The translations under genes were made by a program, and so were the position numbers. DNA of 64,000 nucleotides from a virus (taxonomy: Duplodnaviria > Heunggongvirae > Uroviricota > Caudoviricetes), in IMG/VR virus record IMGVR_UViG_3300032093_008018, positions 18,559 through 82,558 of that record; one strand, given 5' to 3'. Below are positions 16,479 through 62,829 of this stretch, one piece after another. The notes below the pieces were generated by a model. That model was given only the letters and a program-made list of their open reading frames with translations, was not told the DNA's origin and did not search any database. Position 1 is the stretch's first letter. Every line of letters starts with the position of its first letter.

Positions 16479-17101
16479 AACCAGAAATAATGAATGAAAA
16501 AAATCAAGTATTGGCGTTTCATCACGGTAGTAGAGATTATGGAATCAAGGGATTTCTTGACTTTTATAAAAAATATGTCAATCTCAAAAAAGGTAAAGTA
16601 GTCGATTTGGGATGTGGTACTGGATCGTATCTATTTGCATTAGAGACGCAATATCCAGACCTATTAATAACCGGCTATGACGCGAGTGAGTATATGATAG
16701 AACTTGGACAAACTATTGTAGAAAATATCAGTAGTGGAGTACGATTAAGATGCGAATATTTTAAAAATGTTAAAGATTCTGCTGATTGCGTAATATCAAC
16801 TAATACACTTCATCACATACATGATTCTAATATTTTTTGGAACTGTGTAAAGAATATTTCAAACAATGTATTCATTATGGATTTGGTTCGTCCTAAAAAC
16901 AAAGATATTGCAAAAAAAATTGTTGGTCAATTGGCTGAAAAAGATAGCGAATTATTTAAAAACGATTATTACAATTCGCTCTTAGCAGCATTCAATGCCG
17001 ACGAATTAAGACAGCAGATTTTAGATACAAAATTAAATCTAATTATCGAGGGAAATACTGATTTTCTACAAGTAGCAATTATATATGGCCAAATACAATA
17101 A
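16463..17101 (+). CDS. Class I SAM-dependent methyltransferase
   Basis: Motif I 'VVDLGCGTGSY'. Acidic residue 'GYDASEYM'. 'ISTNTLHH'. Confidence 0.7.
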   Translation: MQRHLEPEIMNEKNQVLAFHHGSRDYGIKGFLDFYKKYVNLKKGKVVDLGCGTGSYLFALETQYPDLLITGYDASEYMIELGQTIVENISSGVRLRCEYFKNVKDSADCVISTNTLHHIHDSNIFWNCVKNISNNVFIMDLVRPKNKDIAKKIVGQLAEKDSELFKNDYYNSLLAAFNADELRQQILDTKLNLIIEGNTDFLQVAIIYGQIQ

Positions 17102-18885: not shown

Positions 18886-20126
18886 CTCCAGCATATATTT
18901 TTTATTCTCTAAACATCAACGGAAAATTAATTGTTTCGGCAAAAGACATTGACGGAAATGATATTTTTACAGATAACATAATAAGTGAAAAAATAAAACA
19001 ATTATCCACTAACGTATCTGTTATTGTTTTTAATATGTTTAGCGGATTTTCTATTGACATCCCATCGACTATCCTTAGAGATTTAGAATTTATTAAATCA
19101 TTTAAACATCATATATTTTTTCATGGAATGGAACCCGCGGTTAAACTTATTGAAGATAGAATTATTGAATCTCCAGAATATCAGCCAGTATATGAATTTT
19201 TAACTGTTTATCATAATCTTGTTACTCCAAATACATTAGAGTATATTGACAATGATTTTTCAATTAAATCAAGTTTTAGAAAATGGGCTAGAGCTTTAAA
19301 GACTAAACCTAAATTTGCAGTATCTTGTGTTGACAACCTATTGTACGGAAAAGTTCTATTAAATTTTACAATGTTATTTTTTAAATCTTCTTCTGATCCA
19401 GAAATGTTTTTTAGAACAACATTCCAAGAAATTAGGAAACAATACCGCCACACACATTTATTCAACTCTTTTAATAGACAGCGTCGCTGGAATAGAGAAT
19501 TAATATTTTACCTACTGTGGAAAAATAATCTATTAGACGATGGAATTTTATCCATGCATCAAAAAAATTATAATTTAAGATTTTTAAAAATATGTGAAAA
19601 ATTTAATTTAAATGTCTCTGAGGAAGAATTAAATCAAATTAATAAACTTCTTCCTATTAAGATAGACAATTTAGAAATACCAAATTTTAAATTAACCCAC
19701 GGTACGCACGAATATTTTGTTTCAAATTTTTACAATGATCAAATGTTTATGGCGCCGATTAATGTTGTCACTGAGACCTTTTTTGTTCAAAATATCATAA
19801 CACACAGTGAAAAAATTTTAAGACCTATTTTACTAGGGCAAATTATCTTACCTTTAGCTACATATAATCTATGCCATGCTTTGGAAGAAAAATTTAATTT
19901 TAAATTTTCAAAATCAACATTAGAAATTGATAAAATTAAAGATCCAGTTGAAAGAGCAAATGCAGTTATTAAAAAATTAATTTTTTTTAAAAATGATCAA
20001 AAATCACTATATCAGGAATTAGATTATGTTAATGATAACTATAATCATAACCTTGATATGATTCTGCTAAATTCTTCAGATAACATATTATTAAATATTA
20101 AAAAGTTAGTGAAAAAATATGTTTAA
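18873..20126 (+). CDS. Hypothetical protein
   Basis: 417-aa ORF. No motif recognised. Confidence 0.45.
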   Translation: MEPMTPAYIFYSLNINGKLIVSAKDIDGNDIFTDNIISEKIKQLSTNVSVIVFNMFSGFSIDIPSTILRDLEFIKSFKHHIFFHGMEPAVKLIEDRIIESPEYQPVYEFLTVYHNLVTPNTLEYIDNDFSIKSSFRKWARALKTKPKFAVSCVDNLLYGKVLLNFTMLFFKSSSDPEMFFRTTFQEIRKQYRHTHLFNSFNRQRRWNRELIFYLLWKNNLLDDGILSMHQKNYNLRFLKICEKFNLNVSEEELNQINKLLPIKIDNLEIPNFKLTHGTHEYFVSNFYNDQMFMAPINVVTETFFVQNIITHSEKILRPILLGQIILPLATYNLCHALEEKFNFKFSKSTLEIDKIKDPVERANAVIKKLIFFKNDQKSLYQELDYVNDNYNHNLDMILLNSSDNILLNIKKLVKKYV

Positions 20127-21912
20127 CGTTTATCTTTTACAACCACAATATACAGCAGTAATCAACGGACAAGCCAATCATTGGATACCTTATAGTGTTG
20201 GAACCATTTGGTGTTATGCTATTCAATATCCAGAAATTGCAGAAAATTTTACGCTGGCTGGTTTGATTTTTAAAAGAGAAAAAATAGAAGATGCCATATC
20301 TAAAATTGAAAATCCGTCATTATGTGGGTTTAGTTGTTATATGTGGAATCGCCTTTATTGTTTAGAATTTGCAAAACAAATTAAAGAAAAATGGCCTTCG
20401 TGTGTTATTGTTTTTGGGGGGCCGGAAGTTAATTCTGGGTTTTTAGAATACGATTTTATTGATTCAATAGTCCAGGCCGAAGGCGAAGAAACATTTGTTG
20501 AAATATTAAGAAGAATAAAAAATCAACAACCTATCGAAAAATTCATGCCAAAAAAACGCATGAAGGATTTATCAGTTATTCCAAGTCCATACACAACAGG
20601 AATATTTGATAAAATCATAGAAGAAAATCCGAATGCAGTTTGGGCTATGACATTAGAAACCAATCGGGGTTGTCCATATTCCTGCACATTTTGCGATTGG
20701 GGCAGTCTTACTTACAGTAAAGTTGCTAAATTTGAACTTGAAAAAATTTATAGCGAAATAGAGTGGATACGAGATCGACCAATTTCTTATGTATATCTCG
20801 CAGATGCAAACTTTGGAATATTCAAAGAAAGAGATTTAGAGATTGCTAAAAAATTAAGAGAAGTAACAGATAGTAACCCAAAAGTAGAAGTAATGAGTAT
20901 TATTACTGCAAAAAATAGTACGGAAAATATTTTTATGATTGGGCAGGTTTTGGGACCAAAATATTTAGGAGTTTCTATTGCATTGCAAAGTTTCAATGAA
21001 GATACTTTAGATGCCATAAAACGTAAAAATTTACCTACAAACAATTTAGAAGAATTGTTAGAAATGAGTACAAAATATAATGTTCCCACTTATACAGAAT
21101 TAATTCTGGGAATGCCTAATGAAACTTTAAAGAGCTGGAAAGAGGGATTTACTCGAGTAATTGAATTAGGACAACACAATGTAGTTGAAATGTATTGGAC
21201 TCAACTGTTGACAAATAGCGAACTTGCTTCTGCTACCAGCAGACTGATGCATGGAATAAAAGCAGTTAAGTGTCATGATTATATCGACATGCATAGCGAA
21301 ACGAACGACGGCATTTCAGAAACTATAGAAATAATTTGCGAAACTAAAACGATGTCCAGAGAAGAAATGGTCGATGGATATATGTACGGATGGATGATAA
21401 CAAAATTTCACTTTACTGGATACTCTCAAATTATTTCAAGATATTTAAGAGTTAATAATGATATTTCATATCAACAGTTTTATGATGATTTTTATGAATT
21501 TTTAAAAACTGATCCGTTAACAAAACAAGAATATGATAAAATGAAAAATCTTGTTCGACAGTTTTTAACTTTTGGAAAAATAGATGACGGACCGGGACAC
21601 ATATTACACAAACGAAGTAATGAATGGTTATACGATCATCGTCACGAATTGATAAGAAAAGTTATTGATTTTTCAAAAAAGTTTAATAATATACCACAAT
21701 GGGTGATTGATCTTCAATCAACTTTTATATTCGATATTGAGCATACATATCCTATTAGAATACAAGGCAGTTGCGATATAGTTAATAAGAAAAAAGAAAA
21801 TGTATTTTACGAGGTTGTTCCAAAAATTAAAGATATTAAAGGTTTAAGTTTAGTTTCTATGAGACGTAGAGGTTCTTTAAAAAATTTATTAATTGTTAAT
21901 TCTTATGAATAA
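20119..21912 (+). CDS. B12-binding (class B) radical SAM enzyme
   Basis: 'TNRGCPYSCTFC' CxxxCxxC after a ~185-aa N-terminal domain ('VIVFGGPEV'). Paralogous to 11559, 26879 and 28482 ORFs. Confidence 0.75.
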   Translation: MFNVYLLQPQYTAVINGQANHWIPYSVGTIWCYAIQYPEIAENFTLAGLIFKREKIEDAISKIENPSLCGFSCYMWNRLYCLEFAKQIKEKWPSCVIVFGGPEVNSGFLEYDFIDSIVQAEGEETFVEILRRIKNQQPIEKFMPKKRMKDLSVIPSPYTTGIFDKIIEENPNAVWAMTLETNRGCPYSCTFCDWGSLTYSKVAKFELEKIYSEIEWIRDRPISYVYLADANFGIFKERDLEIAKKLREVTDSNPKVEVMSIITAKNSTENIFMIGQVLGPKYLGVSIALQSFNEDTLDAIKRKNLPTNNLEELLEMSTKYNVPTYTELILGMPNETLKSWKEGFTRVIELGQHNVVEMYWTQLLTNSELASATSRLMHGIKAVKCHDYIDMHSETNDGISETIEIICETKTMSREEMVDGYMYGWMITKFHFTGYSQIISRYLRVNNDISYQQFYDDFYEFLKTDPLTKQEYDKMKNLVRQFLTFGKIDDGPGHILHKRSNEWLYDHRHELIRKVIDFSKKFNNIPQWVIDLQSTFIFDIEHTYPIRIQGSCDIVNKKKENVFYEVVPKIKDIKGLSLVSMRRRGSLKNLLIVNSYE

Positions 21913-24219: not shown

Positions 24220-24752
24220 TTCCATGGTCGGAAGATTTAGATCTTACTGAATTTTATGCCGAGGCAAAATCTAGAGGTTTCGTAAATAACTCAAGTCAAG
24301 CAGCAATGATCGATTGTTTTAAAAATGAAGTACGTTGGAACATCTGGATATTATATTATAATGACCACCCTGTTGGATCTGTGGCGGCACATACTTTAGA
24401 CGATCTTGGATATAGGATTTGTGCTAGAACATGTGTATTAACCAATCACTTACCTAAAATAACTTTAAGAACAATTAATCAAATTAAAAATCATCAACAT
24501 ATTACTGCACAGTTTTTTATGCCCACTTGTATTGAATGGGTAGGCAATCATGATATGTATATTACTAGTCACGAAAGCGAAGTTGGCACACAAAGATTAG
24601 TTCATACAATATGGGGGCCCACATTAGAATCTACAGGAGTGCTGACCAGAGCGTTTGATCATAATTATAGAGGTCATAAACAAACGTTCTGGAAACTTAA
24701 TAAAAATATATTTTTAGATCAATTATCAAAGGTAGATAGATGGACACAATAA
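24207..24752 (+). CDS. Hypothetical protein
   Basis: 181-aa ORF. No motif recognised. Confidence 0.4.
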   Translation: MYKIVPWSEDLDLTEFYAEAKSRGFVNNSSQAAMIDCFKNEVRWNIWILYYNDHPVGSVAAHTLDDLGYRICARTCVLTNHLPKITLRTINQIKNHQHITAQFFMPTCIEWVGNHDMYITSHESEVGTQRLVHTIWGPTLESTGVLTRAFDHNYRGHKQTFWKLNKNIFLDQLSKVDRWTQ

Positions 24753-25819
24753 GTTTATGCGAACATTGTTATAGACACGTTTCTGCTAAAAAGTTTATAC
24801 GAGATGGTAGCGTGTGGATGAGTAAAGAGTGTCCGGAGCACGGTTATAGTGAATATATGATAGAACGCGATTCAGACTTTTATAAGAGTTTAGAATTTGA
24901 TCCGTACGGATACGATGTGCCCAGTGGTATTATGATTGAAGTTACAGATCGCTGTAATTTAAAATGCCCGCACTGTTATCATGAACCAGAAAATGCAACA
25001 ACAGACAAACCCTTAGGATTAATACTTCAACAAATTGAAAGTTGGCCTGAAGATGCTGGTAGCGTTATCCTTGCAGGTGCTGAACCTACACTACGTAAAG
25101 ACTTACCTGAACTAATTAGAAACATCAGACATGTACAAACTCGCCTAGGCAGAACACACCAGGATATTACAATTTTAACTAATGGTGTTAAGCTCGCTGA
25201 TAAGCAGTGGACTGAAGAAATAGCCAAGGCTGGATGTCGTGCTGTGATGGTAGGACTTAACCATCATTCGTACCAAGGTGATACTGTACATCAAAAACAG
25301 TTACAAGGTATTGAGAATTGTAAGGCTGCTGGCATTGTTGTTTACTACGTAGGTTATACATTAGAAAACTTAAATCACATTCCAGAAGTACTAGAAGAAA
25401 TACAAAAACTAGGAAATAATGCCTTACAGTATCGTGTACGTGCTGGCAGCGACATTGGTCGCAACCCGGATGAACCTCGTTATTATCTTAGTGACCATGT
25501 AAAAGCAATTAAGGACTATGTAGACAGCAAAGGATGGACATGGGAAAAGATACCTGCAGATGATAATCTGTATCATTATATGGTTAAGATTAACGGTATC
25601 ACACATAGATTAATACAATGGAGCGATCCTAAAACCATTGATATGGAAGAGCTACGATGTGGTCCGTGGTGTGACTTTGTACCTAATAAACCTATTAGTA
25701 ATTTTCTACATCAAATCATGCTACGTGACGCGGCTGTAAACAAGAATATGATATTATATGACACCGTTCCGGAACGTTATAGATTTCGTAGCAGAGAGGA
25801 TATGAGGATAGATCCCTAA
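24740..25819 (+). CDS. Radical SAM enzyme with N-terminal Cys/His zinc-ribbon-like segment
   Basis: 'TDRCNLKCPHC' CxxxCxxC. N-terminal 'CEHCYRH...ECPEHG'. Confidence 0.75.
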   Translation: MDTISLCEHCYRHVSAKKFIRDGSVWMSKECPEHGYSEYMIERDSDFYKSLEFDPYGYDVPSGIMIEVTDRCNLKCPHCYHEPENATTDKPLGLILQQIESWPEDAGSVILAGAEPTLRKDLPELIRNIRHVQTRLGRTHQDITILTNGVKLADKQWTEEIAKAGCRAVMVGLNHHSYQGDTVHQKQLQGIENCKAAGIVVYYVGYTLENLNHIPEVLEEIQKLGNNALQYRVRAGSDIGRNPDEPRYYLSDHVKAIKDYVDSKGWTWEKIPADDNLYHYMVKINGITHRLIQWSDPKTIDMEELRCGPWCDFVPNKPISNFLHQIMLRDAAVNKNMILYDTVPERYRFRSREDMRIDP

Positions 25820-26878: not shown

Positions 26879-28489
26879 ATGTTTAATGTCATACTATTTA
26901 CCGATGCTCCCTATCCTCATCATAAAATTAGAGGTTATGGTGTGCATAGAATTGCTAGTCAAATTAGAACAAATGGTTACTCTTGTCTTGTCATTGATTT
27001 TAGTTCGGCACTAACATTTGATAGATATAAAGAAATTATTGATAATTCAGTGGGACCAGAAACTCTTATGGTTGGTTTTAGTACAACTTGGTTACCTTAT
27101 AGATGGCCGGAAAAACCAGGAGAATTTACCAATCAGATTCCCGGACACCATATTGGGGAACAACATGAATTAAGTCATTTAAAGTCAGAGATGCACGATT
27201 GGAGAAAAGATAATTTAGTGGTTAAATTTGGAAAGAATGAAGTTGAAGAATGGTTGTTATATCCTAAAACAATTAATTCAAAATTAAAAATTGTATTAGG
27301 TGGTGCAAAAGCAGATTTTTATATGGATCTAAAAAATATAGATCATGTTATTTTTGGAATTGCCGAAACTGAAACTATTGATTTATTAGATCGACTATCG
27401 GGAAAAACAAAACGCATATTTGGAAAATATATCGATCACGATAGAAAAGCTCATGCTCCTACATGGGATTTTAGAGAAAGTAGCACACAATACACAGAAT
27501 ATGATTTTATACAACCTCAAGAAACTCTTAACTTAGAAGTAGGTCGCGGATGTAGATTTAAATGTTCGTTCTGCAACTTTCCTCTTATTGGTCAAAAAAA
27601 TGTCAATGATTATTTAAAATATCCAACTATTATTCGTGACGAGTTGTTAAAAAATTACGAACTTTGGGGTACTACTAAGTATTTTATTGTGGATGATACA
27701 TTTAATGACAGCACTGAAAAATTAGAAATGTTGGCCAAGGTAATGAGCGACTTGCCTTTTAAAATTAAATTTTGGTGTTATACCCGAGTTGATCTATTAG
27801 CCGCACATCCCGAACAGATGGAACTGTTAAAAGAAATAGGCATAGCAGAAACATTTTTTGGTCTTGAAACTTTTAATGACAAGAGCTCAAAAACTATTGG
27901 TAAGGGAATGCCATCAAGTCGCCGTAAGGATACTTTATATAGAGCAAAAGAAGTGTGGGGTGATCGAGTATGGTTAGAAGGGGGTTTTATGATTGGCCTT
28001 CCTCACGAAACCCAGGCTAGTTGGAGAGAAACCGTTGATTGGTTAAAGCGTAGAGATTGTCCGCTAGATATTTCGACAGTATATCCTCTCAATATAATTA
28101 AAAAAACCGATAGAAATAAATGGTTCCCTACTAGTTGGTTTGACGAAAACTACGAAAAGTTTGGATATCAATTTCCTAAGGACGGAGTAGACGGAATGTT
28201 ATATTGGGAGAAAGATGATACCGATATTAAAAATTTTTATCAAGCACAAGAAATAGCCGACATTACCACTAAAGAATTAGCATCATATCAAAGAATACGT
28301 CAGGGAGATTTTTATGTTAGTTCTTTCAATCATCCAATACTTGGAAATAGAGAGTTTACTATCGATATGCCAAAGATAGAATATAATAATTTAATAAATT
28401 CTATAGACTTTAATCAACTGTTTTATGATCATACCAATAAAGAATATTTTCAACCGTTGTTAAACTATCTTAAAAATAAAAATGTTTGA
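26879..28489 (+). CDS. B12-binding (class B) radical SAM enzyme, tandem duplicate 1
   Basis: 'VGRGCRFKCSFC'. N-terminus near-identical in pattern to 28482 ORF ('MFNVILFTDAPY...GYGVHRIASQIR'). Confidence 0.8.
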   Translation: MFNVILFTDAPYPHHKIRGYGVHRIASQIRTNGYSCLVIDFSSALTFDRYKEIIDNSVGPETLMVGFSTTWLPYRWPEKPGEFTNQIPGHHIGEQHELSHLKSEMHDWRKDNLVVKFGKNEVEEWLLYPKTINSKLKIVLGGAKADFYMDLKNIDHVIFGIAETETIDLLDRLSGKTKRIFGKYIDHDRKAHAPTWDFRESSTQYTEYDFIQPQETLNLEVGRGCRFKCSFCNFPLIGQKNVNDYLKYPTIIRDELLKNYELWGTTKYFIVDDTFNDSTEKLEMLAKVMSDLPFKIKFWCYTRVDLLAAHPEQMELLKEIGIAETFFGLETFNDKSSKTIGKGMPSSRRKDTLYRAKEVWGDRVWLEGGFMIGLPHETQASWRETVDWLKRRDCPLDISTVYPLNIIKKTDRNKWFPTSWFDENYEKFGYQFPKDGVDGMLYWEKDDTDIKNFYQAQEIADITTKELASYQRIRQGDFYVSSFNHPILGNREFTIDMPKIEYNNLINSIDFNQLFYDHTNKEYFQPLLNYLKNKNV

Positions 28490-30038
28490 TGTTATTCTTT
28501 TTACTGACACTGTAGAATTTAATATTAAATCTAGAGGTTATGGTGTACACAGATTAGCCAGTCATATACGCAATTATGGTTATAGCTGTTTAGTAATTAA
28601 TTTTAGCTCTCTTGTTACTTGGGAAATATACACTGAAATATTAGATAAAGCAATTGGACCAAACACATTACTAGTTGGCTATAGTACAACATGGATGCCT
28701 TTTAAGTTTCCTGATATTGGTGTTAGAACCAGTAATCCGGGAGAAGGAACAGGAACAGATAAAGAACGATTTGAGATTCCAAGTTTAGTTACTGAGTTTG
28801 CTCGAGATAATTATAAACCCTGGATCGATTATGTCAAACAATGTAATTTAAAAACAAAAACAATGTTGGGTGGTGCAAGGATTGATTTTTATCTTAATGC
28901 TCCTACAGATTATGTTATAGTCGGATTAGGAGAAACTGAAACTATTGATTTGTTAGATTCTCTGTCGGGAAAAACAAAAAGGATATTTAATAGAATTATA
29001 GATCATGATCGTAAGGCGCACAATCCAACATGGGATTTTAAATTAAGTACTACTTCATATACGTCCTGGGATTTAATACAACCTCAAGAAACTTTAAATT
29101 TAGAAGTCAGCAGAGGTTGTAAATTTAAATGTGCCTATTGCTCGTATCCTTTGATAGGACAGAAAACAGTCAACTATCTTAAACAAGCTGATGTTATACG
29201 TAGAGAACTCTTAGAAAATTATGAACAATGGGGAACAACAAAATATTTTATTGTTGATGATACGTTTAATGATAGTACAGAAAAGATGCAGATGTTTGCA
29301 GATGTTAGTCAGAGTTTGCCTTTTGAATTAAAATTTTGGTGTTATCTAAGAGCAGATTTATTAGCGGCACACCCAGAGCAAATACAATTACTAAAAGATG
29401 CCGGTATAGCAGAAACTTACTTTGGTCTAGAAACATTTAATCCAAAAACTGCAAAGTTTATTGGTAAGGGGATGGCTAGTGAAAGATTAATAGATACTAT
29501 CTATCAGTGTAAAGAAATTTGGGGAGATCGAAGTTACATTGCTTCGGGGATTATTATAGGTTTACCTTACGAAAGTACAGATACAATTTATAAGGCTGTT
29601 GAATTTTTTAAAAGAAAAGATTGCCCAATAGATTTAGCTAACACATTTCCTTTAAGTATTATTGGTAATCACAATATTATGAAATACATGTATATGAGTG
29701 AAATTGATCGCAATTATTCAAAGTATGGTTATTATTTTCCTAATCCCGATATAAATTTCTTTAGTTGGAGAAAAGATGATGATACTGATATAAACAGCTA
29801 CGAACAGGCCGAATTACTTTCGCAAGAATTAAATTCTACATTGAAGAATAAGCCGTATCGAGGAGATTTTTATATTAGTAGTTTTAATGATAGTAGACTA
29901 AGCAATAGAGAAAAAAATTTAGATTTAACAGATAAAGAATATCAAAATTTAATTAAGTCTATTAATTTTACAGAAATGTTTAAAGAAACAATAATAAGAG
30001 ATTATTTTAAACCTCTTATCCTAAAGTTATCCAACTAG
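28482..30038 (+). CDS. B12-binding (class B) radical SAM enzyme, tandem duplicate 2
   Basis: 'VSRGCKFKCAYC'. N-terminus 'MFDVILFTDTVE...GYGVHRLASHIR'. 8-nt overlap with copy 1. Confidence 0.8.
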   Translation: MFDVILFTDTVEFNIKSRGYGVHRLASHIRNYGYSCLVINFSSLVTWEIYTEILDKAIGPNTLLVGYSTTWMPFKFPDIGVRTSNPGEGTGTDKERFEIPSLVTEFARDNYKPWIDYVKQCNLKTKTMLGGARIDFYLNAPTDYVIVGLGETETIDLLDSLSGKTKRIFNRIIDHDRKAHNPTWDFKLSTTSYTSWDLIQPQETLNLEVSRGCKFKCAYCSYPLIGQKTVNYLKQADVIRRELLENYEQWGTTKYFIVDDTFNDSTEKMQMFADVSQSLPFELKFWCYLRADLLAAHPEQIQLLKDAGIAETYFGLETFNPKTAKFIGKGMASERLIDTIYQCKEIWGDRSYIASGIIIGLPYESTDTIYKAVEFFKRKDCPIDLANTFPLSIIGNHNIMKYMYMSEIDRNYSKYGYYFPNPDINFFSWRKDDDTDINSYEQAELLSQELNSTLKNKPYRGDFYISSFNDSRLSNREKNLDLTDKEYQNLIKSINFTEMFKETIIRDYFKPLILKLSN

Positions 30039-31834: not shown

Positions 31835-32392
31835 TTATAACAGATGATCTGCAACGTTGAGATCTATGACTTCCTGGGATGATAGATAAACATCACTGGC
31901 GGGCAGTAATTTCTTTTTGACTACGCTAGGAGCAAGTCCTGTAGCGTCTTTTAATATTTGTACCATTTTTTCATTACATAAATCATTTTCTCGCATAGTA
32001 GCTTTAAGGTCATGATATTTGTTATCCATACTTTCTGAAAACTGATGACACATAAAACTAGTATTACGAGCTGCGTATCTTTCACCTTGATCACCGCTGG
32101 CAAAAATTAAAAATGCTGCACTCATTACAGCACCGATACCAACAGTTCTAATTGTGTGATTACTGCTACGCATTACATCAATTAAGGCAAATGCTTGATA
32201 AAGATCACCGCCTGTTGAATTAACGTATAAAGTTAATGTTTTTTCCTTTGACTCTAGGTTTTCGTAAACAATCCATTTTATAGCACTTTTGATCGTGTCC
32301 TCATTTATTTCTCCCACTAAGAAATGTATACTGTTTCCGAGTAGTTCGATATCAATACGATCTTCGGCATTGAAGTCCTCGATTTTTTTCAC
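31835..32392 (-). CDS. clpP: ATP-dependent Clp protease proteolytic subunit ClpP-like (GTG start)
   Basis: '[17 protein letters not shown]', '[14 protein letters not shown]' (Ser) and 'FMCHQF' (His) match ClpP motifs. RBS GGAG upstream of the GTG. Confidence 0.8.
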
Positions 32393-48774: not shown

Positions 48775-49212
48775 TTACTTAATGTCTACAATGTCAATGA
48801 CTTTCGGTTTCGCAGACTCTGGAACATTACGGACCAACTTAATGGTTAACATACCATTTTTGGTTTCCGCTCCAGTAACTTCAATATGTTCTGCTAGAGG
48901 AAATTCTTTAACAAAATCGCGAGTAGCAAGACCGCGATGAATGTATTGTTCTGGCGCATGATCTGTAGCCATGCTTTCACCTTTAACAATAAGAATTCCG
49001 TCCTCTACAGTAACAGAAATTTCTGTTTTATCAAATCCAGTAACTGCTAATTGAATCTCATACTGATTTTCACCAGTTTTAAGAATGTTGTGAGGTGGAT
49101 AGTTATTAGATACACTATTAGAAAAACGTCTTTCCATTTGATCAAACAGTGTGTCAAATCCAATAAGAGCTCTGTTAAGAGCTGTAATTTGTGCTAACTG
49201 ATTATTATTCAT
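48775..49212 (-). CDS. Small heat-shock protein (Hsp20/alpha-crystallin)
   Basis: Alpha-crystallin domain. C-terminal 'NGMLTIKLVRNVPESAKPKVIDIVDIK' matches the IbpA/B pattern. Confidence 0.85.
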   Translation of the reverse strand: MNNNQLAQITALNRALIGFDTLFDQMERRFSNSVSNNYPPHNILKTGENQYEIQLAVTGFDKTEISVTVEDGILIVKGESMATDHAPEQYIHRGLATRDFVKEFPLAEHIEVTGAETKNGMLTIKLVRNVPESAKPKVIDIVDIK

Positions 49213-49303
49213 ATTAATCTCCTTTTAAAGTAAGAATATGAGCTTTATGCTCAATGTTGCGGCCCATTAGGTACCGCAACATTATACACACATATGTGTA
49301 TTC

Positions 49304-51217
49304 TTAAGATGCCTTGCCTTCAGTTGCTGTAAAGGAAGCATCGATCACTTCACCATCAGTTGGCTGCGGTGCAGATTGTTCTGCTTTGGCAGCTTCGCGT
49401 TTGGCTTTAATTTTTTCAAACAAAGGTTTTGCAGCATCGGCTACATTGAAAGGACCTTTCTTAATTTCTTCAATGTCACTATTATCATTGACTAATTTTT
49501 CAGCAGCCTCTAGTGCATCTTCAATTATTTTCCATTCTTCTTCTGTAGCAAGATCTTTTTCTGCTTCTAATTCTCTGCGAATTGTATACAGTTCAGATAA
49601 TGCACCATTACGTGTTTCAATAACTTCACGTGCTTTTTTATCTTCTTCTGCATATTGTTCTGCTTCAGCGATCATACGTTTGATTTCATCTTCAGTAATG
49701 CCGCTATTAGCTTTAATGGTAATTTTATTTTCTTTACCAGTATTTTTGTCTTTGGCACTTACGCTTAAAATACCATTAGCATCAATATCAAATGTAACTT
49801 CAATTTGAGGCATACCACGTGGTGCTGGATCAATACCTTCAAGATTAAATTCGCCTAACAATTTGTTATGATGTGCCAATTCGCGTTCTCCTTGGAACAC
49901 ACGAATAGTAACAGCAGGTTGATTGTCATCAGCTGTACTGAAAATTTGATTTGCCTTAGTTGGAATAGTAGTATTCTTAGCAACCAGTTTGGCCATTACA
50001 CCGCCTACTGTTTCAATACCCAAAGTTAATGGAGTAACATCTAACAATAGGACATCTTTACGATCACCACCCAACACAGCACCTTGGATAGCAGCACCAA
50101 CTGCTACTGCTTCGTCTGGGTTAACATCTTTACGTGGCGCTTTTCCAAATAAACGTTCTACTTCTTCTTGTACCTTTGGCATGCGAGTTTGGCCGCCAAC
50201 TAGAATAACTTCGTCGATCTGATCTGCGGTAACTCCGGCATCTTTCATAGCAATACGACAAGGTTCTAATGAACGTTGAATTAAATCGTCAACTAACTGT
50301 TCCAATTTTGCCTTGGTAATTTTTACCACTAGATGTTTAGGACCACTAGCATCGGCAGTAATGTATGGAAGATTAACTTCAGTTTGTGTAGAATTAGATA
50401 ATTCAATCTTAGCTTTTTCAGCAGAGTCCTTAAGACGTTGTAGTGCCAACATATCTTTAGTTAGATCAATGCCTTGCTCTTTCTTAAATTCCTCAACCAG
50501 ATAATCCATAATGCGCTGGTCAAAGTCTTCACCGCCTAAGAATGTATCGCCGTTTGTTGACAATACTTCAATTTGTTTGTCGCCTTCGACGTTGGCAATC
50601 TCAATGATACTGATATCAAATGTGCCACCACCTAAGTCATACACCGCAATCTTACGATCAGCTTTGTCTGTCTTGTCAACACCGTAGCTTAATGCAGCCG
50701 CAGTAGGTTCGTTAATAATACGTAGAACTTCTAAGCCAGCGATTTGACCGGCATCTTTAGTTGCCTGTCTTTGACTATCATTGAAGTAAGCAGGCACTGT
50801 AATAACAGCCTGTGTAACTTCATGCCCTAAATAGTCCTCTGCAGTCTTTTTCATCTTGCGAAGAACTTCTGCAGACACCTGTGGAGGTGCCATTTCTTTT
50901 CCTTGTGCGCGAATCCAAGCATCACCATTTGTTGCCTTGACAATTTCATAAGGCATTAGGTCAATGTCCTTCTGAACAGCCTGTTCATTGAACTTACGTC
51001 CAATTAACCGCTTAGATGCATAAATTGTGTTTTTGGGATTAGTTACCGCCTGACGCTTTGCTGAAGCACCTACTAAAATATCGCTGTCTGTATAAGCAAC
51101 AATACTCGGAGTTGTTCTTGCGCCTTCTGAGTTTTCAATTACTTTGGATTTGCCGTTTTCAATAACAGCTACACATGAGTTTGTGGTACCCAAATCGATA
51201 CCGATGATTTTTGACAT
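49304..51217 (-). CDS. dnaK: Hsp70 chaperone DnaK (start at '[18 protein letters not shown]' with RBS AAGGAG)
   Basis: Canonical Hsp70 motifs throughout: 'IDLGTTNS', 'DLGGGTFD', '[11 protein letters not shown]'. Confidence 0.95.
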
Positions 51218-51298
51218 ATTTTTCTCCTTAAAAAGTAAGAATTTAATGAGCACTGAGCTCGTTACAATTAGCCCATTGGGTGCTAATTGCGTTTTTAT

Positions 51299-52378
51299 TT
51301 ATCTCGTAAAGACATCATTAAATTGCATATTGACCCTAATAAATGTAGTACATTTAGATAATTGTTTAAGACTTGCAGCACCTACATATGTGCAAGAACT
51401 ACGCAGTCCGCCCAACATATCCAAAATTGTACTTTGGACCGGGCCCTTATACGGTACTCTTACCGTACGTCCTTCTGATGAACGATATTCAGCTATGCCA
51501 CCATGATGCTTGTTCATAGCAGTATTTGAACTCATTCCATAGAATTCTACATATTTTTTAATTTCATAATCATTTGAAAACATATCTTTTTGAAGTTTTG
51601 AAAGTTCGTGCATTTCTTCAATAACTTCACCGCCGCCCTCATCATGACCGGCTAACATGCCTCCTAACATTACAAAGTCTGCTCCGGCGCCAAACGCCTT
51701 AGCAATGTCACCGGGACACACACAACCACCATCAGCAATAATATGGCCGCCGAGACCATGAGCAGCGTCAGCACACTCAATAATAGCACTGAGCTGAGGA
51801 TAACCGACGCCAGTTTGTATCCTAGTTGTACAAACACTGCCTGGACCAATGCCCACTTTGATAATATCTGCTCCACGTAAAATTAACTCCTGTGTCATGT
51901 CTGCGGTAACAACGTTACCTGCGATAATTGTGTGATTAGGAAATGCCTCACGCACTTCTTCTACATAGTCCCCGAAGTGTTCGCTATATCCATTTGCTAC
52001 ATCTATACAGATAAATTTTATTTCGGAATAAGAATTAAGTATGTTACTTAATCTTTCAAAGTCCTTTTCGGAAGTCCCTGTGCTTACTGCGAAATGATTG
52101 CCTCCTATATCTTGTACGGTTGTTTCAAAGTATACCGTACTGATATTCTTAACTAGGCAAGTGAACATTTTGTGTTGATATAGAGCATGAGCCATTTCTA
52201 GTGTACCAACACCGTCCATGTTACTGGCCATAATCGGAACTCCTGTCCACTCGGCGCGACTGTGTTTAAATTTGTAAGTCCTTGTTAAGTCAACTTCTTT
52301 GCGACTTGATAAAGTACTGCGCTTAGGACGAATAAGAACATCTTTGAAATCTAATTTGATTTCATCTTCGATTCTCAT
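51299..52378 (-). CDS. guaC: GMP reductase (IMPDH/GuaC family, no CBS insert)
   Basis: '[23 protein letters not shown]' matches the GuaC N-terminus. Catalytic loop '[11 protein letters not shown]'. Confidence 0.9.
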
Positions 52379-58300: not shown

Positions 58301-58672
58301 TTATCGCCTCATTTTGGCAATTTCTACAGCTTCTTCGTCTGAAAAAATTGGAACAGCATTACTTTTATGCATAGTGCCAATACCTTTAACTTTTGTACCA
58401 GTATAAACTTTCTGCTCTGGTTTAGTACAAGGTCCAGCAGTAAAAGGAAGACTAGGAATCTTTGGAGTCTCTCTTATAGGTGCTGATTTGGCCTTTAATG
58501 GTTCAAATTTTTTCTGTTTACTAGTTTTTGGCACATCATACTTTTCTAACAACGACTGCCAAGAATCTTGTAACTCGCGAGACTTACGTGCTTCTTCAGC
58601 ATTACGAAATTTACGTTTGCTTTTTTTCTTGCCTGTGGTACTGAGCCACGGACCTTCCAAATGCATACTCAA
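58301..58672 (-). CDS. Hypothetical Lys-rich protein
   Basis: 123-aa ORF. Confidence 0.35.
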   Translation of the reverse strand: MSMHLEGPWLSTTGKKKSKRKFRNAEEARKSRELQDSWQSLLEKYDVPKTSKQKKFEPLKAKSAPIRETPKIPSLPFTAGPCTKPEQKVYTGTKVKGIGTMHKSNAVPIFSDEEAVEIAKMRR

Positions 58673-58732
58673 AGTATATCTCCAAAATTAGTTACTGAGC
58701 ATATAGTATAACATATTTGCAATAAAAGTCAA

Positions 58733-58761
58733 GAAAAAACCCGCCGGAGCGGGTTTTGATT
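58733..58761 (-). terminator. Bidirectional Rho-independent terminator immediately 3' of the pqqA-like gene
   Basis: AAAAAA-CCCGC-CGGA-GCGGG-TTTT(GATTTTTG). Confidence 0.65.
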
Positions 58762-58775
58762 TTTGATACTATGTA

Positions 58776-58847
58776 TTAGCGATTAGCGATGTACATAGTG
58801 ATCTCAAAACCATAACGCATCTCGGTTGCTTCTGGCTTGGTCCACAT
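58776..58847 (-). CDS. pqqA: PqqA-like precursor peptide (23 aa, not in the ORF track)
   Basis: '[23 protein letters not shown]' matches my recollection of PqqA ('MWTKPA.TDLRIGFEVTMYF..R'), including the conserved Glu and Tyr. RBS AAAGGAGAA lies 5 nt upstream. Confidence 0.7.
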
Positions 58848-58955
58848 AATGCTTCTCCTTTTTAACAACAATAAAAACATACTATTGCAACAGTATGTAT
58901 CTGCATTATATGATAAAAACTACCAGAAAACCATAGTGAAATTCATTAAAATAGG

Positions 58956-59135
58956 CTAATTGATCTGTTTACCCCACTCAATTTTTAGCCAAAATCGTTC
59001 ATGTATGTAGTGGGCAACAGTCATAAAAATATTAATAACGATAGCTCCTGCCAATCCTGTCCATGCCGCAGTTATAAGAGTTGCGGTAATTCTCCATGTA
59101 ATTGCTCGTGTTAGTGTTCGTTTGTGTGTTTCCAT
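58956..59135 (-). CDS. DUF2061-like small membrane protein (59 aa, not in the ORF track)
   Basis: 'METHKRTLTRAITWRITATLITAAWTGLAGAIVINIFMTVAHYIHERFW' resembles the 'METHKRS..KAI.WR' DUF2061 signature recalled from memory. Confidence 0.45.
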   Translation of the reverse strand: METHKRTLTRAITWRITATLITAAWTGLAGAIVINIFMTVAHYIHERFWLKIEWGKQIN

Positions 59136-59145
59136 TTAGTGTGTC

Positions 59146-59168
59146 CAAAAAAAAGCCCCATTAGATGG
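59146..59168 (-). terminator. Rho-independent terminator downstream of the porin gene
   Basis: Minus-strand read: GCCCCATCTAATGGGGC followed by TTTTTTTT. Confidence 0.6.
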
Positions 59169-59193
59169 GGCATTATAAATGCCAAGTTATTTA

Positions 59194-60606
59194 TTAAAAA
59201 CTTAGTTGGCTTCTAAACATAACAGCACGTTCGCCGTTTACACGACTACCTGAACTGCCTACTAGACTATCAAATTTTGTGTCTACATAATTTAACATAA
59301 AACGTAGGTTGTCTGTGCAGAACCAGGTAACACCATATGTCATAGCAGTAGCACGATTTGATTTGCCGGTAGCTACAGTAATGTCACTGGCATCAAACTC
59401 ACTCATACGTACACCAACTTGCCATGCACCACGACCACCTTTGTCCAAAGGATTAGCAGGTTTGATCCAACCAAATGCGCCATCTTTATATGAGTGTGAC
59501 TCACCTGTTAGATTATACACAGCTTGCACATAGTATCCATTTATTTTCTGATCGTTACCTGTTGCAGGATCATAATTAAATTGAAAATGTTCGCCTTGCA
59601 CCTTAAATGCATTATAAGCAAATGCAGCTTCGAGGCCTTGACGTGTTCTTGTAGTTGCACCGCTAAGAGCAGATCCTGTAAACCATCCTGATTGCATACG
59701 TGATTCTGTTCTACCACTTGCTGGAGCTACACCGCTTTTGATTTCACCTGTACTATAAGCGGCACCTAAATGTGCTGTATATGCTTTGCTTCCGGTTAGT
59801 TCAGCGATGTTTGTAGTTACACGACTAATGTAGTCAAAGCCATCAAACTCGGCACTCTTATTGCTCTTACCTCTGCTTAATGCTAGAGCGTATGTTAAGC
59901 CAGGCTTAGGAATACCATGTAACATAAATCCAGTTTCTTTAGCAGGTATAAACTCTGTATCATTTTGACCAATTAAACTGCGTTCCATAAAGTCAAGATT
60001 GTTTGAACTTGTTAACTGCTCAAGACTGAATGGCATCTTGAATAAACCAAATTGAAACTGTGCTTCTGGATTTGCAGCATAGTTGACCCACATTTCATCT
60101 GCTGTACTCGATGTTGAACTAAAACCATCACTGGCACCAAAGTTTGCTAATAATTGATATTTGAAATCTTTGGCAAACTGACCTCTTACTCCAAATCTGG
60201 CTCGTCGTGCTTCAGCAGTATTCTGGTACGAATCTGTGGTTTGACCTGTACCGTAATCCGGGGAGTACTGACGATAGTCCATATGTAGTCGACCTGTAAG
60301 CTGGACGGTGTTGCCGCCATCTTTGCTTTTGAGTCCAATTCCGTTTTCTGTGACTGATCCGTCATTAACTCTGGCCTGTCTGTATTTGACTGAGTCGCTG
60401 ACATCTCTGTCAATTCTCTGTTCAATAAACTTTTTGTTTTCTTCTTTTTCTTCATATTCTTTAAGTTTAATATCATATTCTTTCTGTGTAAGAATATTTT
60501 TATTTTTTAGAATTTCAAGTGTGTCTTTGTATTCGTCTGCGTGTGCAGGTGCAGGTATAAATGCTGTCACAGATGACGCCAGCATTACCTTAAGTAATGT
60601 TTTCAT
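59194..60606 (-). CDS. Phosphate-selective porin O/P family outer-membrane protein
   Basis: Signal peptide. N-terminal coiled segment then Gly/Tyr-rich beta-barrel. C-terminal 'FRSQLSF'. Adjacent to pstS. Confidence 0.55.
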   Translation of the reverse strand: MKTLLKVMLASSVTAFIPAPAHADEYKDTLEILKNKNILTQKEYDIKLKEYEEKEENKKFIEQRIDRDVSDSVKYRQARVNDGSVTENGIGLKSKDGGNTVQLTGRLHMDYRQYSPDYGTGQTTDSYQNTAEARRARFGVRGQFAKDFKYQLLANFGASDGFSSTSSTADEMWVNYAANPEAQFQFGLFKMPFSLEQLTSSNNLDFMERSLIGQNDTEFIPAKETGFMLHGIPKPGLTYALALSRGKSNKSAEFDGFDYISRVTTNIAELTGSKAYTAHLGAAYSTGEIKSGVAPASGRTESRMQSGWFTGSALSGATTRTRQGLEAAFAYNAFKVQGEHFQFNYDPATGNDQKINGYYVQAVYNLTGESHSYKDGAFGWIKPANPLDKGGRGAWQVGVRMSEFDASDITVATGKSNRATAMTYGVTWFCTDNLRFMLNYVDTKFDSLVGSSGSRVNGERAVMFRSQLSF

Positions 60607-60628
60607 TTTAAATCCTTATAAAATAGAT

Positions 60629-60648
60629 CCGCCAGTGATCACTGGCGG
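60629..60648 (-). terminator. Intrinsic terminator/attenuator hairpin between pstS and the porin gene
   Basis: CCGCCAGTGATCACTGGCGG palindrome followed by ATCTATTTTAT on the minus strand. Confidence 0.5.
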
Positions 60649-60658
60649 TGGGTACTGC

Positions 60659-61684
60659 TTACTTCCAAATAGCGTTGCTATCCTTATCTTTTAACTGAGT
60701 CTTCCAATGATTCTGTACTAATGTAATAACAGATTGTGGAAGATGTACATATTCTAAATCTGTAGCCATCTGCCCGCCGTTCTTGTAACTCCAATCAAAG
60801 AACTTAAGAACTGCACGACCTGTTAGTGCATCCTCTTGTTGCTTATGCATGAGAATGAAACTGGCACCTGTAATAGGCCAAGCGTCCTTGCCTTTTTGGT
60901 CTGTTAGCAATAGATAGAACCCTGGAGCATTTGCCCAGTCTGCACCTGCTGCCGCTGCCTTGAATGTATCATCGCTAGGCTGTACAAAGTTGCCATCACG
61001 ATTTTTGACTTGTGCGTGTGGAATCTTGTTGCGTTTAGCATAGGCATATTCTACATAACCAATACTATTTTTTAGTTGTTGGACCACAGCACTTACACCT
61101 TCATTGCCCTTACCACCTACACCCATTGGCCATTTGACTGCGGTGCCGTCTTTGACTTTATCTGCCCATTCTTTATTAGTCTTGCTTAACCAGTTAGTCC
61201 ATATAAAGGTTGTACCTGAACCATCACTGCGGTGAACCACAGAGATATTTGCATTAGGTAATTTTAATCCTGGATTGATTGCTGTGATGCTGGGATGATC
61301 CCACTTGACGATCTTACCCATATAGATGTCAGCAATAATGTCTGAGGTAAGTTTAAGTTGTCCTGCACCAATACCATCAATGTTTACAATCGGCACAACT
61401 CCGCCAATGATTGCAGGGAATTGCATTAGACCGTCTTTGTCTAATTCGTCTTGTTTTAGTGGCATGTCACTGGCGCCAAAATCTACAATCTTAGCTTTGA
61501 TTTGACGGATGCCGCCGCCTGAACCAATTGATTGATAGTTGAGTCCGATGCCTGTTGCTGCTTTATATGCTTCGGCCCATTTTGAATAGATAGGATAAGG
61601 AAATGTTGCCCCTGCTCCTGTTAGATCCGCTGCATGTGCTGAAACGGTCAATGCCGCCAGTAGTGTCAGTATGATTTTTTTCAC
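60659..61684 (-). CDS. pstS: Phosphate ABC transporter substrate-binding protein PstS (GTG start, RBS AAGGAG)
   Basis: 'GAGATFPYPIYSKWAEAYK...GSGGG...VVHRSDGSGTT' matches PstS. Confidence 0.9.
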   Translation of the reverse strand: MKKIILTLLAALTVSAHAADLTGAGATFPYPIYSKWAEAYKAATGIGLNYQSIGSGGGIRQIKAKIVDFGASDMPLKQDELDKDGLMQFPAIIGGVVPIVNIDGIGAGQLKLTSDIIADIYMGKIVKWDHPSITAINPGLKLPNANISVVHRSDGSGTTFIWTNWLSKTNKEWADKVKDGTAVKWPMGVGGKGNEGVSAVVQQLKNSIGYVEYAYAKRNKIPHAQVKNRDGNFVQPSDDTFKAAAAGADWANAPGFYLLLTDQKGKDAWPITGASFILMHKQQEDALTGRAVLKFFDWSYKNGGQMATDLEYVHLPQSVITLVQNHWKTQLKDKDSNAIWK

Positions 61685-61715
61685 TGTAATCTCCTTGTGT
61701 GAGTGAATAAAAAGA

Positions 61716-61740
61716 AAGGTACAACACTATGTTGTACCTT
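61716..61740 (-). terminator. Intrinsic terminator after ahpD, ~30 nt upstream of the pstS RBS
   Basis: AAGGTACAAC-ACTAT-GTTGTACCTT followed by TCTTTTTATT on the minus strand. Confidence 0.55.
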
Positions 61741-61780
61741 CTTATTTAAGAGACCTAAGATTACAGTTCTGTTACGGCGA

Positions 61781-62296
61781 TTAACTATTTAGTACTCTGG
61801 ATACACTGGTGATAACTGCCGCTATGCGCCCAATATCACGTAATTGTTCTACTGTATATCCTTCTTGCTTGAGTGTTTCATAATGTGCTTTCACACAAAA
61901 ATGACACTTGCCAACAATACTAGCAGATAAAGAATATGCTTCAAATCTTGCTTTAGTAGTGCCGCCATGTGTAGTAATTGCGTTCATACGCAACTGTGCC
62001 GGTAATCCTGTTAGATTAGGATCCTCAGCCATTTCAACGAATGGGTACCATACATTGTTCATGGCCATTAGACTAGCTGCGGTAACTGCTGCTTCAGCTT
62101 CTTTCTTATCTATTGCCTGACTCTGCATCCAAGTCCACAGTTTACTATTACCTGTGGCAAAAGCCGCTGCGATAGCAACAGCTTCTGCTTCTTCTTGGGG
62201 TAGAGTAGAACGCTTAACTACTGCATCAATGTTAAGACGAGTGTCTTTAGCATAGTCCGGAATAGTTTCTTTAATTTGATCTACCCAAGCAGTCAT
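61781..62296 (-). CDS. ahpD: AhpD-like alkylhydroperoxidase (carboxymuconolactone decarboxylase family; start at 'MTAWVDQIK')
   Basis: 'GKCHFCVKAHYE' CxxC...H core. The ATG overlaps the peroxiredoxin stop as TAATG. Confidence 0.7.
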   Translation of the reverse strand: MTAWVDQIKETIPDYAKDTRLNIDAVVKRSTLPQEEAEAVAIAAAFATGNSKLWTWMQSQAIDKKEAEAAVTAASLMAMNNVWYPFVEMAEDPNLTGLPAQLRMNAITTHGGTTKARFEAYSLSASIVGKCHFCVKAHYETLKQEGYTVEQLRDIGRIAAVITSVSRVLNS

Positions 62297-62829
62297 TACA
62301 GTGTCTCTCCGCCAACTGTACGGTTGCAAGCACAAAGTTCACCTGTTTGCAATGCGTCTAATACACGAAGTGTTTCTTCTGGTGAGCGACCAACATTCAA
62401 GTTGTTGACAGTAATGTGTTGGATAACATTCTCTGGATCAACAATGAATGTTGCACGAAGTGCAGCACCTGCTGGAGCATAGAATACGCCAAGCTGATCA
62501 ATAAGGCTCAATTCGTTACGCTGTGTATCAGCAAACTGAACATGTTTGATTTTTTTAAGATCTTCATGGGCTGCTTGCCATGCCAGTTTACAGAATTCGT
62601 TATCTGTTGAACCAGTTAGTAATACTGCGTCACGATCGGCAAAATCACTATTCAATTTATCGTATGCTACGATTTCTGTTGGGCATACAAATGTAAAGTC
62701 TTTTGGATAGTAAACAATTACTTTCCACTTACCTTCGTATGACTTTTCAGTAATGGTAAAGAAATCATCTTTACCAGGATTAACGCCGGTTACGGCAAAT
62801 GCTTCAATTTTATCACCAACTGTTTTCAT
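62296..62829 (-). CDS. ahpC: Peroxiredoxin (AhpC/TSA family)
   Basis: 'DFTFVCPTE' peroxidatic Cys motif. C-terminal 'CAC' resolving region. Confidence 0.9.
   Translation of the reverse strand: MKTVGDKIEAFAVTGVNPGKDDFFTITEKSYEGKWKVIVYYPKDFTFVCPTEIVAYDKLNSDFADRDAVLLTGSTDNEFCKLAWQAAHEDLKKIKHVQFADTQRNELSLIDQLGVFYAPAGAALRATFIVDPENVIQHITVNNLNVGRSPEETLRVLDALQTGELCACNRTVGGETL

Follow-up and report, generated by a model that had tools for sequence, protein, structure and literature searches.

Background

Abundant aquatic methylotrophs, OM43 and LD28 among them, draw their energy from a methanol dehydrogenase whose cofactor is pyrroloquinoline quinone (PQQ). The ribosomal precursor of PQQ is PqqA, a peptide whose Glu and Tyr are cross-linked by PqqE and become PQQ. 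Each PQQ costs one PqqA peptide, which means that output can be limited by the supply of precursor, and for this reason methylotrophs keep several pqqA copies. The pqqA gene of a bacterial pqqABCDE(F/G) operon typically encodes a 23-residue peptide, with a W-T-K-P leader and a G-F-E-x-T-M-Y core that holds a Glu-X3-Tyr pair, and it has a strong ribosome-binding site (RBS) and a hairpin right past its stop codon. All of these features recur in a stand-alone pqqA gene that we describe here from a virus of the class Caudoviricetes, in a 64,000-nucleotide stretch of DNA (hereafter the window; IMG/VR record IMGVR_UViG_3300032093_008018, positions 18,559 to 82,558). In contrast to its counterpart in the bacterial operon, the gene lies in what is very probably a phage genome and has no pqqB next to it, and its hairpin appears to terminate transcription rather than to attenuate read-through.

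Stand-alone copies have a precedent in Methylophilaceae, whose genomes carry 3-12 pqqA copies and a single pqqBCDEFG set (PMC4109929). The window gene resembles these orphan copies in its isolation, in the N-terminal half "TEMR[FY]GFE" of its peptide and in the class of its upstream box; unlike them it sits on a phage backbone, and its C-terminal "ITMYIANR" is a variant of other Burkholderiales. In a methylotroph, pqqA transcript levels track the rate of PQQ synthesis (PMC9851590), and OM43 expresses pqqF/G (PMC5120137).

Viral PqqA is also on record. It was proposed as an auxiliary metabolic gene of methylotroph phages in a 2020 study of Lake Baikal metagenomes (Coutinho et al., PMC7678222), so that the window gene, a phage copy of a host gene, is of a kind already put forward. 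The viral population VP_266 of that study, a predicted methylotroph infector, likewise has a phage PqqA proposed to serve methanol dehydrogenase; unlike the window, in which no methanol dehydrogenase was found, the VP_266 contig encodes that enzyme too. The study mentions viral PqqA briefly, without cassette anatomy, cultured-phage distribution or selection analysis. In a 2026 survey viral pqqA is counted with the phosphorus-related genes (PMC13188868), and the isolate papers on phages Melnitz, MEP301 and MEP401/402 leave pqqA unmentioned.

We consider it likely, from the comparisons below, that the pqqA of the window is a functional auxiliary metabolic cassette with which the phage would supply precursor to the PqqBCDE enzymes of its host and thereby sustain methanol dehydrogenase.

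Results

Identity of the gene

The open reading frame (ORF) occupies positions 58776 to 58847 of the window on the minus strand, from the ATG at 58847-58845 to the TAA at 58778-58776, with 23 codons plus the stop. Its 23-residue peptide scores 35 bits against the Pfam PqqA family PF08042 (cutoff 21.1, E = 1.3e-8) and 38.2 bits against the NCBIfam equivalog model TIGR02107 (cutoff 20, E = 8.8e-10), and the Glu-X3-Tyr pair is present as E15 and Y19 in a peptide whose length lies within the 20-40 residues or so usual for PqqA. Scores of this kind identify the ORF as a bona fide pqqA, encoding the precursor peptide of PQQ. A degenerate codon pattern of the PqqA core matches once in the window and never in 100 shuffles, and a search of the window's six-frame translation with the PqqA profile finds no second copy.

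A sequence-only reading of this DNA had proposed the minus-strand start at 58847 with its 23-residue ORF, the PqqA-like character of the peptide with its Glu and Tyr, and an RBS before the ATG. The coordinates agree, the peptide passes the PF08042 search and TIGR02107 as well, and the RBS is AAAGGAGAA at 58861-58853. The same reading drew attention to the distance from any pqqBCDE, linkage to which is typical of pqqA. The gene does lie far from such a cluster, but the distance is not remarkable, being normal in the likely host family (PMC4109929); the missing linkage does not exclude membership in PqqA because orphan copies are the rule in Methylophilaceae.

Occurrence in phages of methylotrophs

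A tblastn search with the peptide against 50,697 GenBank phage records gave 12 matches. Two of these, the "Acinetobacter phage MD-2021a" records CAKLQF020000010.1 (L338 in our numbering) and CAKLQH020000055.1, were discarded as apparently mislabelled Acinetobacter chromosome, carrying as they do fur, ppk and a complete pqqBCDE. The remaining 10 records are Venkman, MEP301, MEP401, MEP402, P19250A, four Melnitz variants and one uncultured freshwater podovirus, and in every one of the nine that state a host, that host belongs to the Methylophilales. A pattern scan of IMG/VR adds at least 120 contigs with pqqA, each with an RBS and an ORF of 23-24 codons; pattern-based scans of IMG/VR and of metagenomes, here and below, give lower bounds and not a census. 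Together with the 2020 Baikal report, these counts overturn the earlier expectation that such a precursor would be unusual in a virus. Judged by these genomes, Methylophilales phages of at least five lineages unrelated to one another keep pqqA, namely siphoviruses, a Zobellviridae podovirus, MEP301, a T4-like myovirus and jumbo phages. Some of the genomes, at 35-44 kb, are too small to accommodate a maturation pathway.

Annotation has largely passed the gene by. No feature is annotated under the match in Venkman, MEP301, MEP401/402 or P19250A. In the podovirus and all four Melnitz records, a "hypothetical protein" is all that is annotated over it. In both records inspected, this call lies on the opposite strand: Melnitz EXVC044M (L133, 11961-12056; gp152, QZI94879.1) and the podovirus (L339, 2067-2195; MW202481, UOF77531.1). 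Set opposite an intact pqqA with its own RBS, these coding sequences are probably mis-calls. The gene occupies an intergenic gap in Venkman and MEP301, on the strand opposite to its neighbours, and a gap between converging genes in P19250A.

Some metagenome loci carry more than one copy. Four of them (L299, L315, L320 and L323, with a GC content of 0.34-0.37) have two different pqqA copies in tandem about 200 nt apart, a MWTQP...VCN[KR] type first and then a MWT[KT]... type, and in a fifth (L243, GC 0.43) 1.7 kb separates the two copies.

Selection on the phage copies

A non-circular sample of 80 loci was gathered through the gene that follows pqqA in the window, a member of the family phrog_27048, and not through pqqA itself. 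In 12 of the 80 loci, pqqA lies just upstream of that gene. One relative, contig L137, encodes a peptide identical to that of the window; others have variants that fall outside the search pattern. Between the window and L137 the gene shows six synonymous differences and no non-synonymous one. Across 11 relatives sampled through the neighbouring gene, the mean proportion of synonymous sites that differ (pS) is 0.59 and the mean non-synonymous proportion (pN) 0.10, for a pN/pS of 0.165, and E15, Y19, G13 and R23 are invariant through two to four different codons. The ORF is intact in every copy seen among the relatives. Such ratios indicate that the phage gene is under purifying selection.

These numbers bear on the idea that pqqA is a non-functional passenger acquired from host DNA, its decay still pending. 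The gene is very short, it is patchy among related loci and it sits in a hypervariable region, all of which would suit a passenger. The many synonymous changes accumulated under purifying selection in ORFs that are everywhere intact, the conserved RBS, -10 element and terminator described below, and the retention of the gene in at least five unrelated phage lineages, genomes of 35-44 kb included, make that idea hardly credible.

Partner enzymes and radical-SAM genes

PqqB, PqqC, PqqD and PqqE were sought by tblastn with the proteins of a reference pqqABCDE operon, verified in Pollutimonas (L126; PqqB 421 bits, PqqC 336, PqqD 102-106 and PqqE 533, all above cutoff), and with profile hidden Markov models built from 13-21 operon sequences each. 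Neither the window nor 204 viral loci nor 24 kb of phage Melnitz yielded any of the four, the sole exception being a match of about 20 bits to a generic radical S-adenosylmethionine (radical-SAM) core. The sequence-only reading had likewise seen no pqqB, pqqC or pqqD in the window.

The same reading had assigned a PqqE-like architecture to the ORF at 17085-18146 and had looked to the distant radical-SAM genes for partners of the PqqE or PqqD type, and here the profiles contradict it. The ORF at 17085-18146 matches the generic Radical_SAM domain only and gives no hit to the PqqE model. Among all proteins of the window the highest PqqE score is 35.1 bits (ORF 24740-25819), to be compared with a TIGR02109 cutoff of 381 and with the 533 bits of the verified Pollutimonas PqqE, and the radical-SAM ORFs of the window were accordingly rejected as PqqE. 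Nor was any PqqD-like recognition sequence found in the window, whose radical-SAM proteins are of the twitch-domain (N_Twi_rSAM) or B12-binding class-B types. In contig L068, pqqA is followed immediately by a class-B radical-SAM gene; a link to this enzyme was also rejected, since three of the four anchored loci that encode it lack pqqA.

At least nine radical-SAM ORFs are densely packed between positions 96 and 30038 of the window. Two encode twitch-domain proteins (96-1394 and 3794-5056), four encode B12-binding class-B proteins (11559-13046; 20119-21912, which is KedN5-like; 26879-28489; and 28482-30038), and the others lie at 2884-3801, 17085-18146 and 24740-25819. Among them lie a class-III aminotransferase gene (14045-15229) and several ORFs that match no family. 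The stretch looks like a phage cluster for the modification of small molecules, lipids or glycans.

It might be asked whether the PqqA peptide is a substrate of these enzymes, to be matured into a different modified peptide or into a PQQ-like compound independently of the host. The window is unusually rich in radical-SAM genes, SPASM/twitch types included, and the gene order in L068 places one such enzyme beside pqqA. Against this stand the PqqE scores an order of magnitude below cutoff, the missing PqqD-like domain, the presence of pqqA at only one of the four anchored loci with the L068-type enzyme, and the phages of 35-44 kb that carry pqqA with no PqqE homologue in the few kilobases examined around it; moreover, several phage peptides are identical to operon-linked host PqqA, which suggests a fit to host enzymes. 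We regard maturation by the phage's own enzymes as very unlikely; were it to hold, it would amount to a virus-encoded pathway for a modified peptide or a cofactor.

Anatomy of the cassette

Among the 12 syntenic relatives, conservation upstream of pqqA starts abruptly at a 19-mer, TTTAATGAATTTCACTATG (58950-58932), beyond which the sequence is not conserved. A TATAAT hexamer, a short stem-loop, a U-rich stretch and the RBS follow the 19-mer in that order in all of them. With its 23 codons and an intrinsic terminator, pqqA therefore has, as read from the alignment, the makeup of a self-contained cassette of about 220 nt: a palindromic box, TATAAT, a possible 5' stem-loop, an RBS, the coding sequence and the terminator.

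The core of the 19-mer is an imperfect palindromic box, TAATGA-ATT-TCACTA, at 58934-58948 on the minus strand, kept in 12 of 12 syntenic relatives. The putative -10 element for pqqA is the TATAAT at 58905-58910; among the 12 aligned relatives it varies at only one of its six positions, a single relative having TATACT. No consensus -35 element was found at 16-18 nt from the TATAAT, and because the -35 is poor, a consensus promoter scan called no promoter for pqqA. We infer a transcription start near 58898, which places the centre of the box some 43 nt upstream of it. A box at this distance combined with a poor -35 is the layout expected of an activator-dependent promoter, and the box may be the binding site of a host regulator. 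A sigma-54 reading of the promoter spacer was considered by eye and rejected.

At the inferred start of the transcript, a putative 5' stem-loop (ACAUACUGU...AUAGUAUGU, 58877-58898, minus strand) has a counterpart in all 12 relatives, where a hairpin folds at this place with loops of 4-10 nt. Read by eye, relatives L197 and L160 retain the stem despite changes on both arms. Folding of the window copy alone gives z = -1.4. When the 5' leader was aligned with MAFFT, RNAalifold counted no compensatory pairs, two of the rows being out of register. With that z score and no counted covariation, the stem-loop is tentative. If it is real, a 5'-end hairpin together with a terminator would give a short and stable mRNA, suiting a peptide needed in bulk.

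The RBS (58853-58861, minus strand) leaves 7 nt between GGAG and the ATG. Its AAGGAG is invariant in the 12 relatives, and an AGGAG-like motif stands ahead of nearly all of the pqqA copies, at least 120, in IMG/VR. Past the stop codon, at 58734-58757 on the minus strand, folding reveals an intrinsic terminator: a G+C-rich hairpin at 58757-58736, with a 9-bp stem (AAAACCCGC/GCGGGUUUU) and the loop UCCG, followed by a U-tract. Its minimum free energy is -16 kcal/mol (z = -4.8), and none of 200 shuffles folds as well. Of 120 viral pqqA loci, 41 have a perfect-stem hairpin with a T-tail within 90 nt past the stop codon; of 605 random positions, 8 do.

The next gene is served by a sigma-70-type promoter of its own, TTGACT-16-TATACT with a TG, at 58705-58732 on the minus strand (10 of 12 consensus matches), which marks the end of the pqqA unit. 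A TTGAC-N16/17-TAnAnT motif directly past the pqqA terminator recurs in L137, L146, L153, L162, L166 and L193. With no pqqB downstream and with this promoter ahead of the next gene, the hairpin is best taken as the terminator of a monocistronic unit and not as the attenuator proposed in the sequence-only reading. That reading had also placed a hairpin and T-tract within 15 nt of the stop; both elements are there, only farther off, the stem beginning 18 nt and the G+C core 22 nt past the stop codon. Separately, the conservation of a near-consensus promoter at this place suggests that the jumbo-phage group uses host sigma-70 for the gene block that follows.

Host operons and the shared box

A metagenome scan for the common PqqA type returned at least 120 loci, 11 of which have pqqB(CDE) directly downstream; in these operon-linked loci a strong hairpin separates pqqA from pqqB. 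The peptides of the 11 loci are identical to peptides found on IMG/VR contigs, so that viral pqqA shows the close kinship to a metabolic gene of the host that is expected of auxiliary metabolic genes. A GTDB scan for the C-terminal subtype of the window peptide gave 12 matches, all 24-residue forms from other Burkholderiales with pqqB(CDE) directly downstream. The host of the window phage is probably a Methylophilaceae-like betaproteobacterium.

The box recurs upstream of host pqqA. We counted it where at least 13 of 15 positions upstream of pqqA agree with the motif TMATGA-WWW-TCATKA (TMATGAWWWTCATKA); the window box matches at 14 of 15, at -101 relative to pqqA. By this count it precedes 8 of 9 operon-linked host pqqA genes, at -121 to -136, as well as 51% of IMG/VR pqqA loci, with a peak near -90, and 57% of metagenome orphan loci. 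It precedes only 1 of 12 operons of other Burkholderiales and appears in 3.2% of random windows. The link that the box makes between phage and host pqqA is suggestive and not proven, because the motif was defined post hoc, after both the host and the phage sets had been inspected, and because a weight matrix built from 12 phage boxes alone missed the host boxes, which did not score above control.

The one exception among the other Burkholderiales is a Casimicrobiaceae metagenome-assembled genome (L125), in which a perfect 15/15 palindrome, TCATGAAAATCATGA, stands about 121 nt upstream of pqqABCDE; the other 11 operons lack it. A perfect box outside the Methylophilaceae-type group means that the regulator may be older or more widespread than one would judge from the phage and host loci compared here.

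A box common to host operons also invites a contrary proposal, that the cassette hinders the host, either through a decoy peptide that ties up PqqD/PqqE or through a box that titrates the host regulator. Several residues of the window peptide do depart from the usual host form. Operon-linked host peptides are matched exactly by many phage copies, however, and E15, Y19 and the whole core are conserved, as expected of a productive substrate; nor is it obvious what a phage would gain by depriving an obligate methylotroph host of energy. Interference of either kind is most improbable.

Genome context

The window has a GC content of 0.28-0.41. Downstream of pqqA, at 58301-58672 on the minus strand, lies the phrog_27048 gene, whose function is unknown (PHROG match over its full length, E = 7e-37) and which is the start of a conserved phage backbone. 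Its relatives occur in Delftia phage PhiW-14 and Acidovorax phage ACP17, and at least 592 IMG/VR stretches, on contigs of up to 364 kb, encode others. Downstream of it come a SleB-type cell-wall hydrolase, a small membrane protein, lipoproteins, a 439-residue protein, an exonuclease PHROG, IMPDH/GMP reductase, DnaK and Hsp20. The 439-residue backbone protein has relatives in the jumbo phages XacN1, Xoo-sp13, RsoM2USA and SCTP-2, in uncultured phages of 484-735 kb and in Pelagibacter phage Mosig. The gene order of the window is syntenic with the IMG/VR contigs L068/L144 (96 kb), L137 (76 kb) and L094.

On the other side of pqqA, at 58956-62829 on the minus strand, is a variable accessory stretch in which Pfam matches identify a DUF2061-like ORF of 59 residues, a phosphate porin O/P, a PstS-like binding protein, AhpD and AhpC. 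Seven of the 12 relatives with pqqA have AhpC-AhpD upstream of it, and in L068/L144 the pair is directly upstream. No PstS or porin homologue occurs in any of the 12, so these two genes look like an insertion in the window. The cassette sits at a variable junction within this accessory stretch.

Two further groups of genes deserve mention. The phosphate-selective porin O/P and the PstS-like protein are adjacent, at 59194-61684, and neither is found at the same position in L068 or L137; PstS is well known among the accessory genes of phages, a phosphate porin much less so. The window also encodes ClpP, Hsp20, a full-length DnaK (838 bits against the HSP70 model) and IMPDH/GMP reductase, at 31835-32392 and 48775-52378. 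DnaK and IMPDH have counterparts of 75-87% identity in related IMG/VR contigs, and DnaK homologues are found in uncultured phages of 484-735 kb as well.

Cellular-looking genes such as these raise the question of whether the window instead comes from a low-GC methylotroph of the Methylophilaceae type, as part of its chromosome or of a genomic island, with the gene as one of the host's orphan pqqA copies. Methylophilaceae do carry 3-12 copies scattered away from pqqBCDEFG, and DnaK, IMPDH/GMP reductase, PstS, porin O/P, AhpC/AhpD and ClpP would all be at home in a chromosome. PHROG and Pfam scans of 40 window ORFs from the 64 kb identified no capsid, portal or terminase gene, and the exact pqqA sequence of the window has no match in IMG/VR. 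The block is syntenic, however, with viral contigs of up to 364 kb; the neighbouring gene belongs to a PHROG family of cultured myoviruses, and the backbone protein is common to cultured jumbo phages. The Hsp20 and exonuclease PHROGs, too, are of kinds typical of phages. DnaK lacks its usual grpE/dnaJ partners, no tRNA genes were found in the window and many of its ORFs match no family. A chromosomal origin is therefore unlikely. Synteny and shared backbone genes make it very probable that the window is the accessory region of a jumbo phage genome, in agreement with the sequence-only reading, which had found the DNA virus-like. That the gene family belongs to bona fide phage genomes is clear from the completely sequenced cultured phages; for the window the evidence is indirect and consistent.

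Discussion

How would a 23-residue peptide serve a phage? The phage would transcribe the pqqA cassette, and since the box is common to phage and host pqqA operons, the host's own PQQ regulation probably controls the phage copy. The visible part of the phage lacks PqqB, PqqC, PqqD and PqqE, and for that reason the peptide would have to be matured by host enzymes, with PqqD/PqqE, PqqB and PqqC, together with peptidases, converting it to PQQ. The phage copy would in this way keep PQQ flowing to the PQQ-dependent methanol dehydrogenase of the host, so that energy remains available during replication. The cultured phages with pqqA all infect methylotrophs that depend on PQQ. The small cost of the cassette, about 220 nt, would explain its retention even in 35-kb phages.

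A classical auxiliary metabolic gene that replaces a rapidly consumed host component is cyanophage psbA. As with psbA, the phage would resupply the one consumed part of a host energy system while the host gives the rest; unlike psbA, the product is a 23-residue sacrificial cofactor precursor and not an enzyme or a structural subunit. The cassette also resembles phage morons in having its own promoter and terminator and in being intergenic (the Venkman and MEP301 copies are antiparallel to their neighbours), and it differs from them in that its promoter region seems to contain a host-type regulatory palindrome and not a simple constitutive promoter.

Several points weigh against the proposal that the cassette feeds host PQQ synthesis. 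Comparative analysis establishes the identity of the gene, selection on its peptide, conservation of the cassette, the absence of partner genes from the loci searched and the distribution among phages; expression of the phage copies and their processing by the host are things that we infer. The window is 64 kb of a probably much larger genome, and pqqBCDE could lie elsewhere in it. Any benefit presupposes that PQQ turns over fast enough within one infection for extra precursor to matter. The patchy occurrence of pqqA in the jumbo-phage group (12 of 80 loci) means that the gene is dispensable there. The EMRY subtype of the N-terminal half of the window peptide occurs in no GTDB species representative, the 12 matches from that scan being other forms. 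Finally, the post hoc definition of the box and the behaviour of the phage-only matrix, both set out above, bear on the regulatory step.

Conclusions

What appears, from the papers searched, to have been under-appreciated about viral pqqA is its restriction to Methylophilales phages wherever a GenBank host is stated (nine of nine), its missing or wrong annotation, its organization as a cassette with a host-type box, and its occurrence in jumbo phages. If phages do use pqqA as proposed here, it may rank among the smallest auxiliary metabolic genes known. It offers an inexpensive marker by which methylotroph hosts can be predicted for uncultured phages, and the hypothesis can be put to the test in the cultured OM43-Venkman and OM43-Melnitz systems. 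For the Methylophilaceae themselves, the palindromic box that their pqqA operons appear to share with phages would provide a handle on the regulator of PQQ synthesis.

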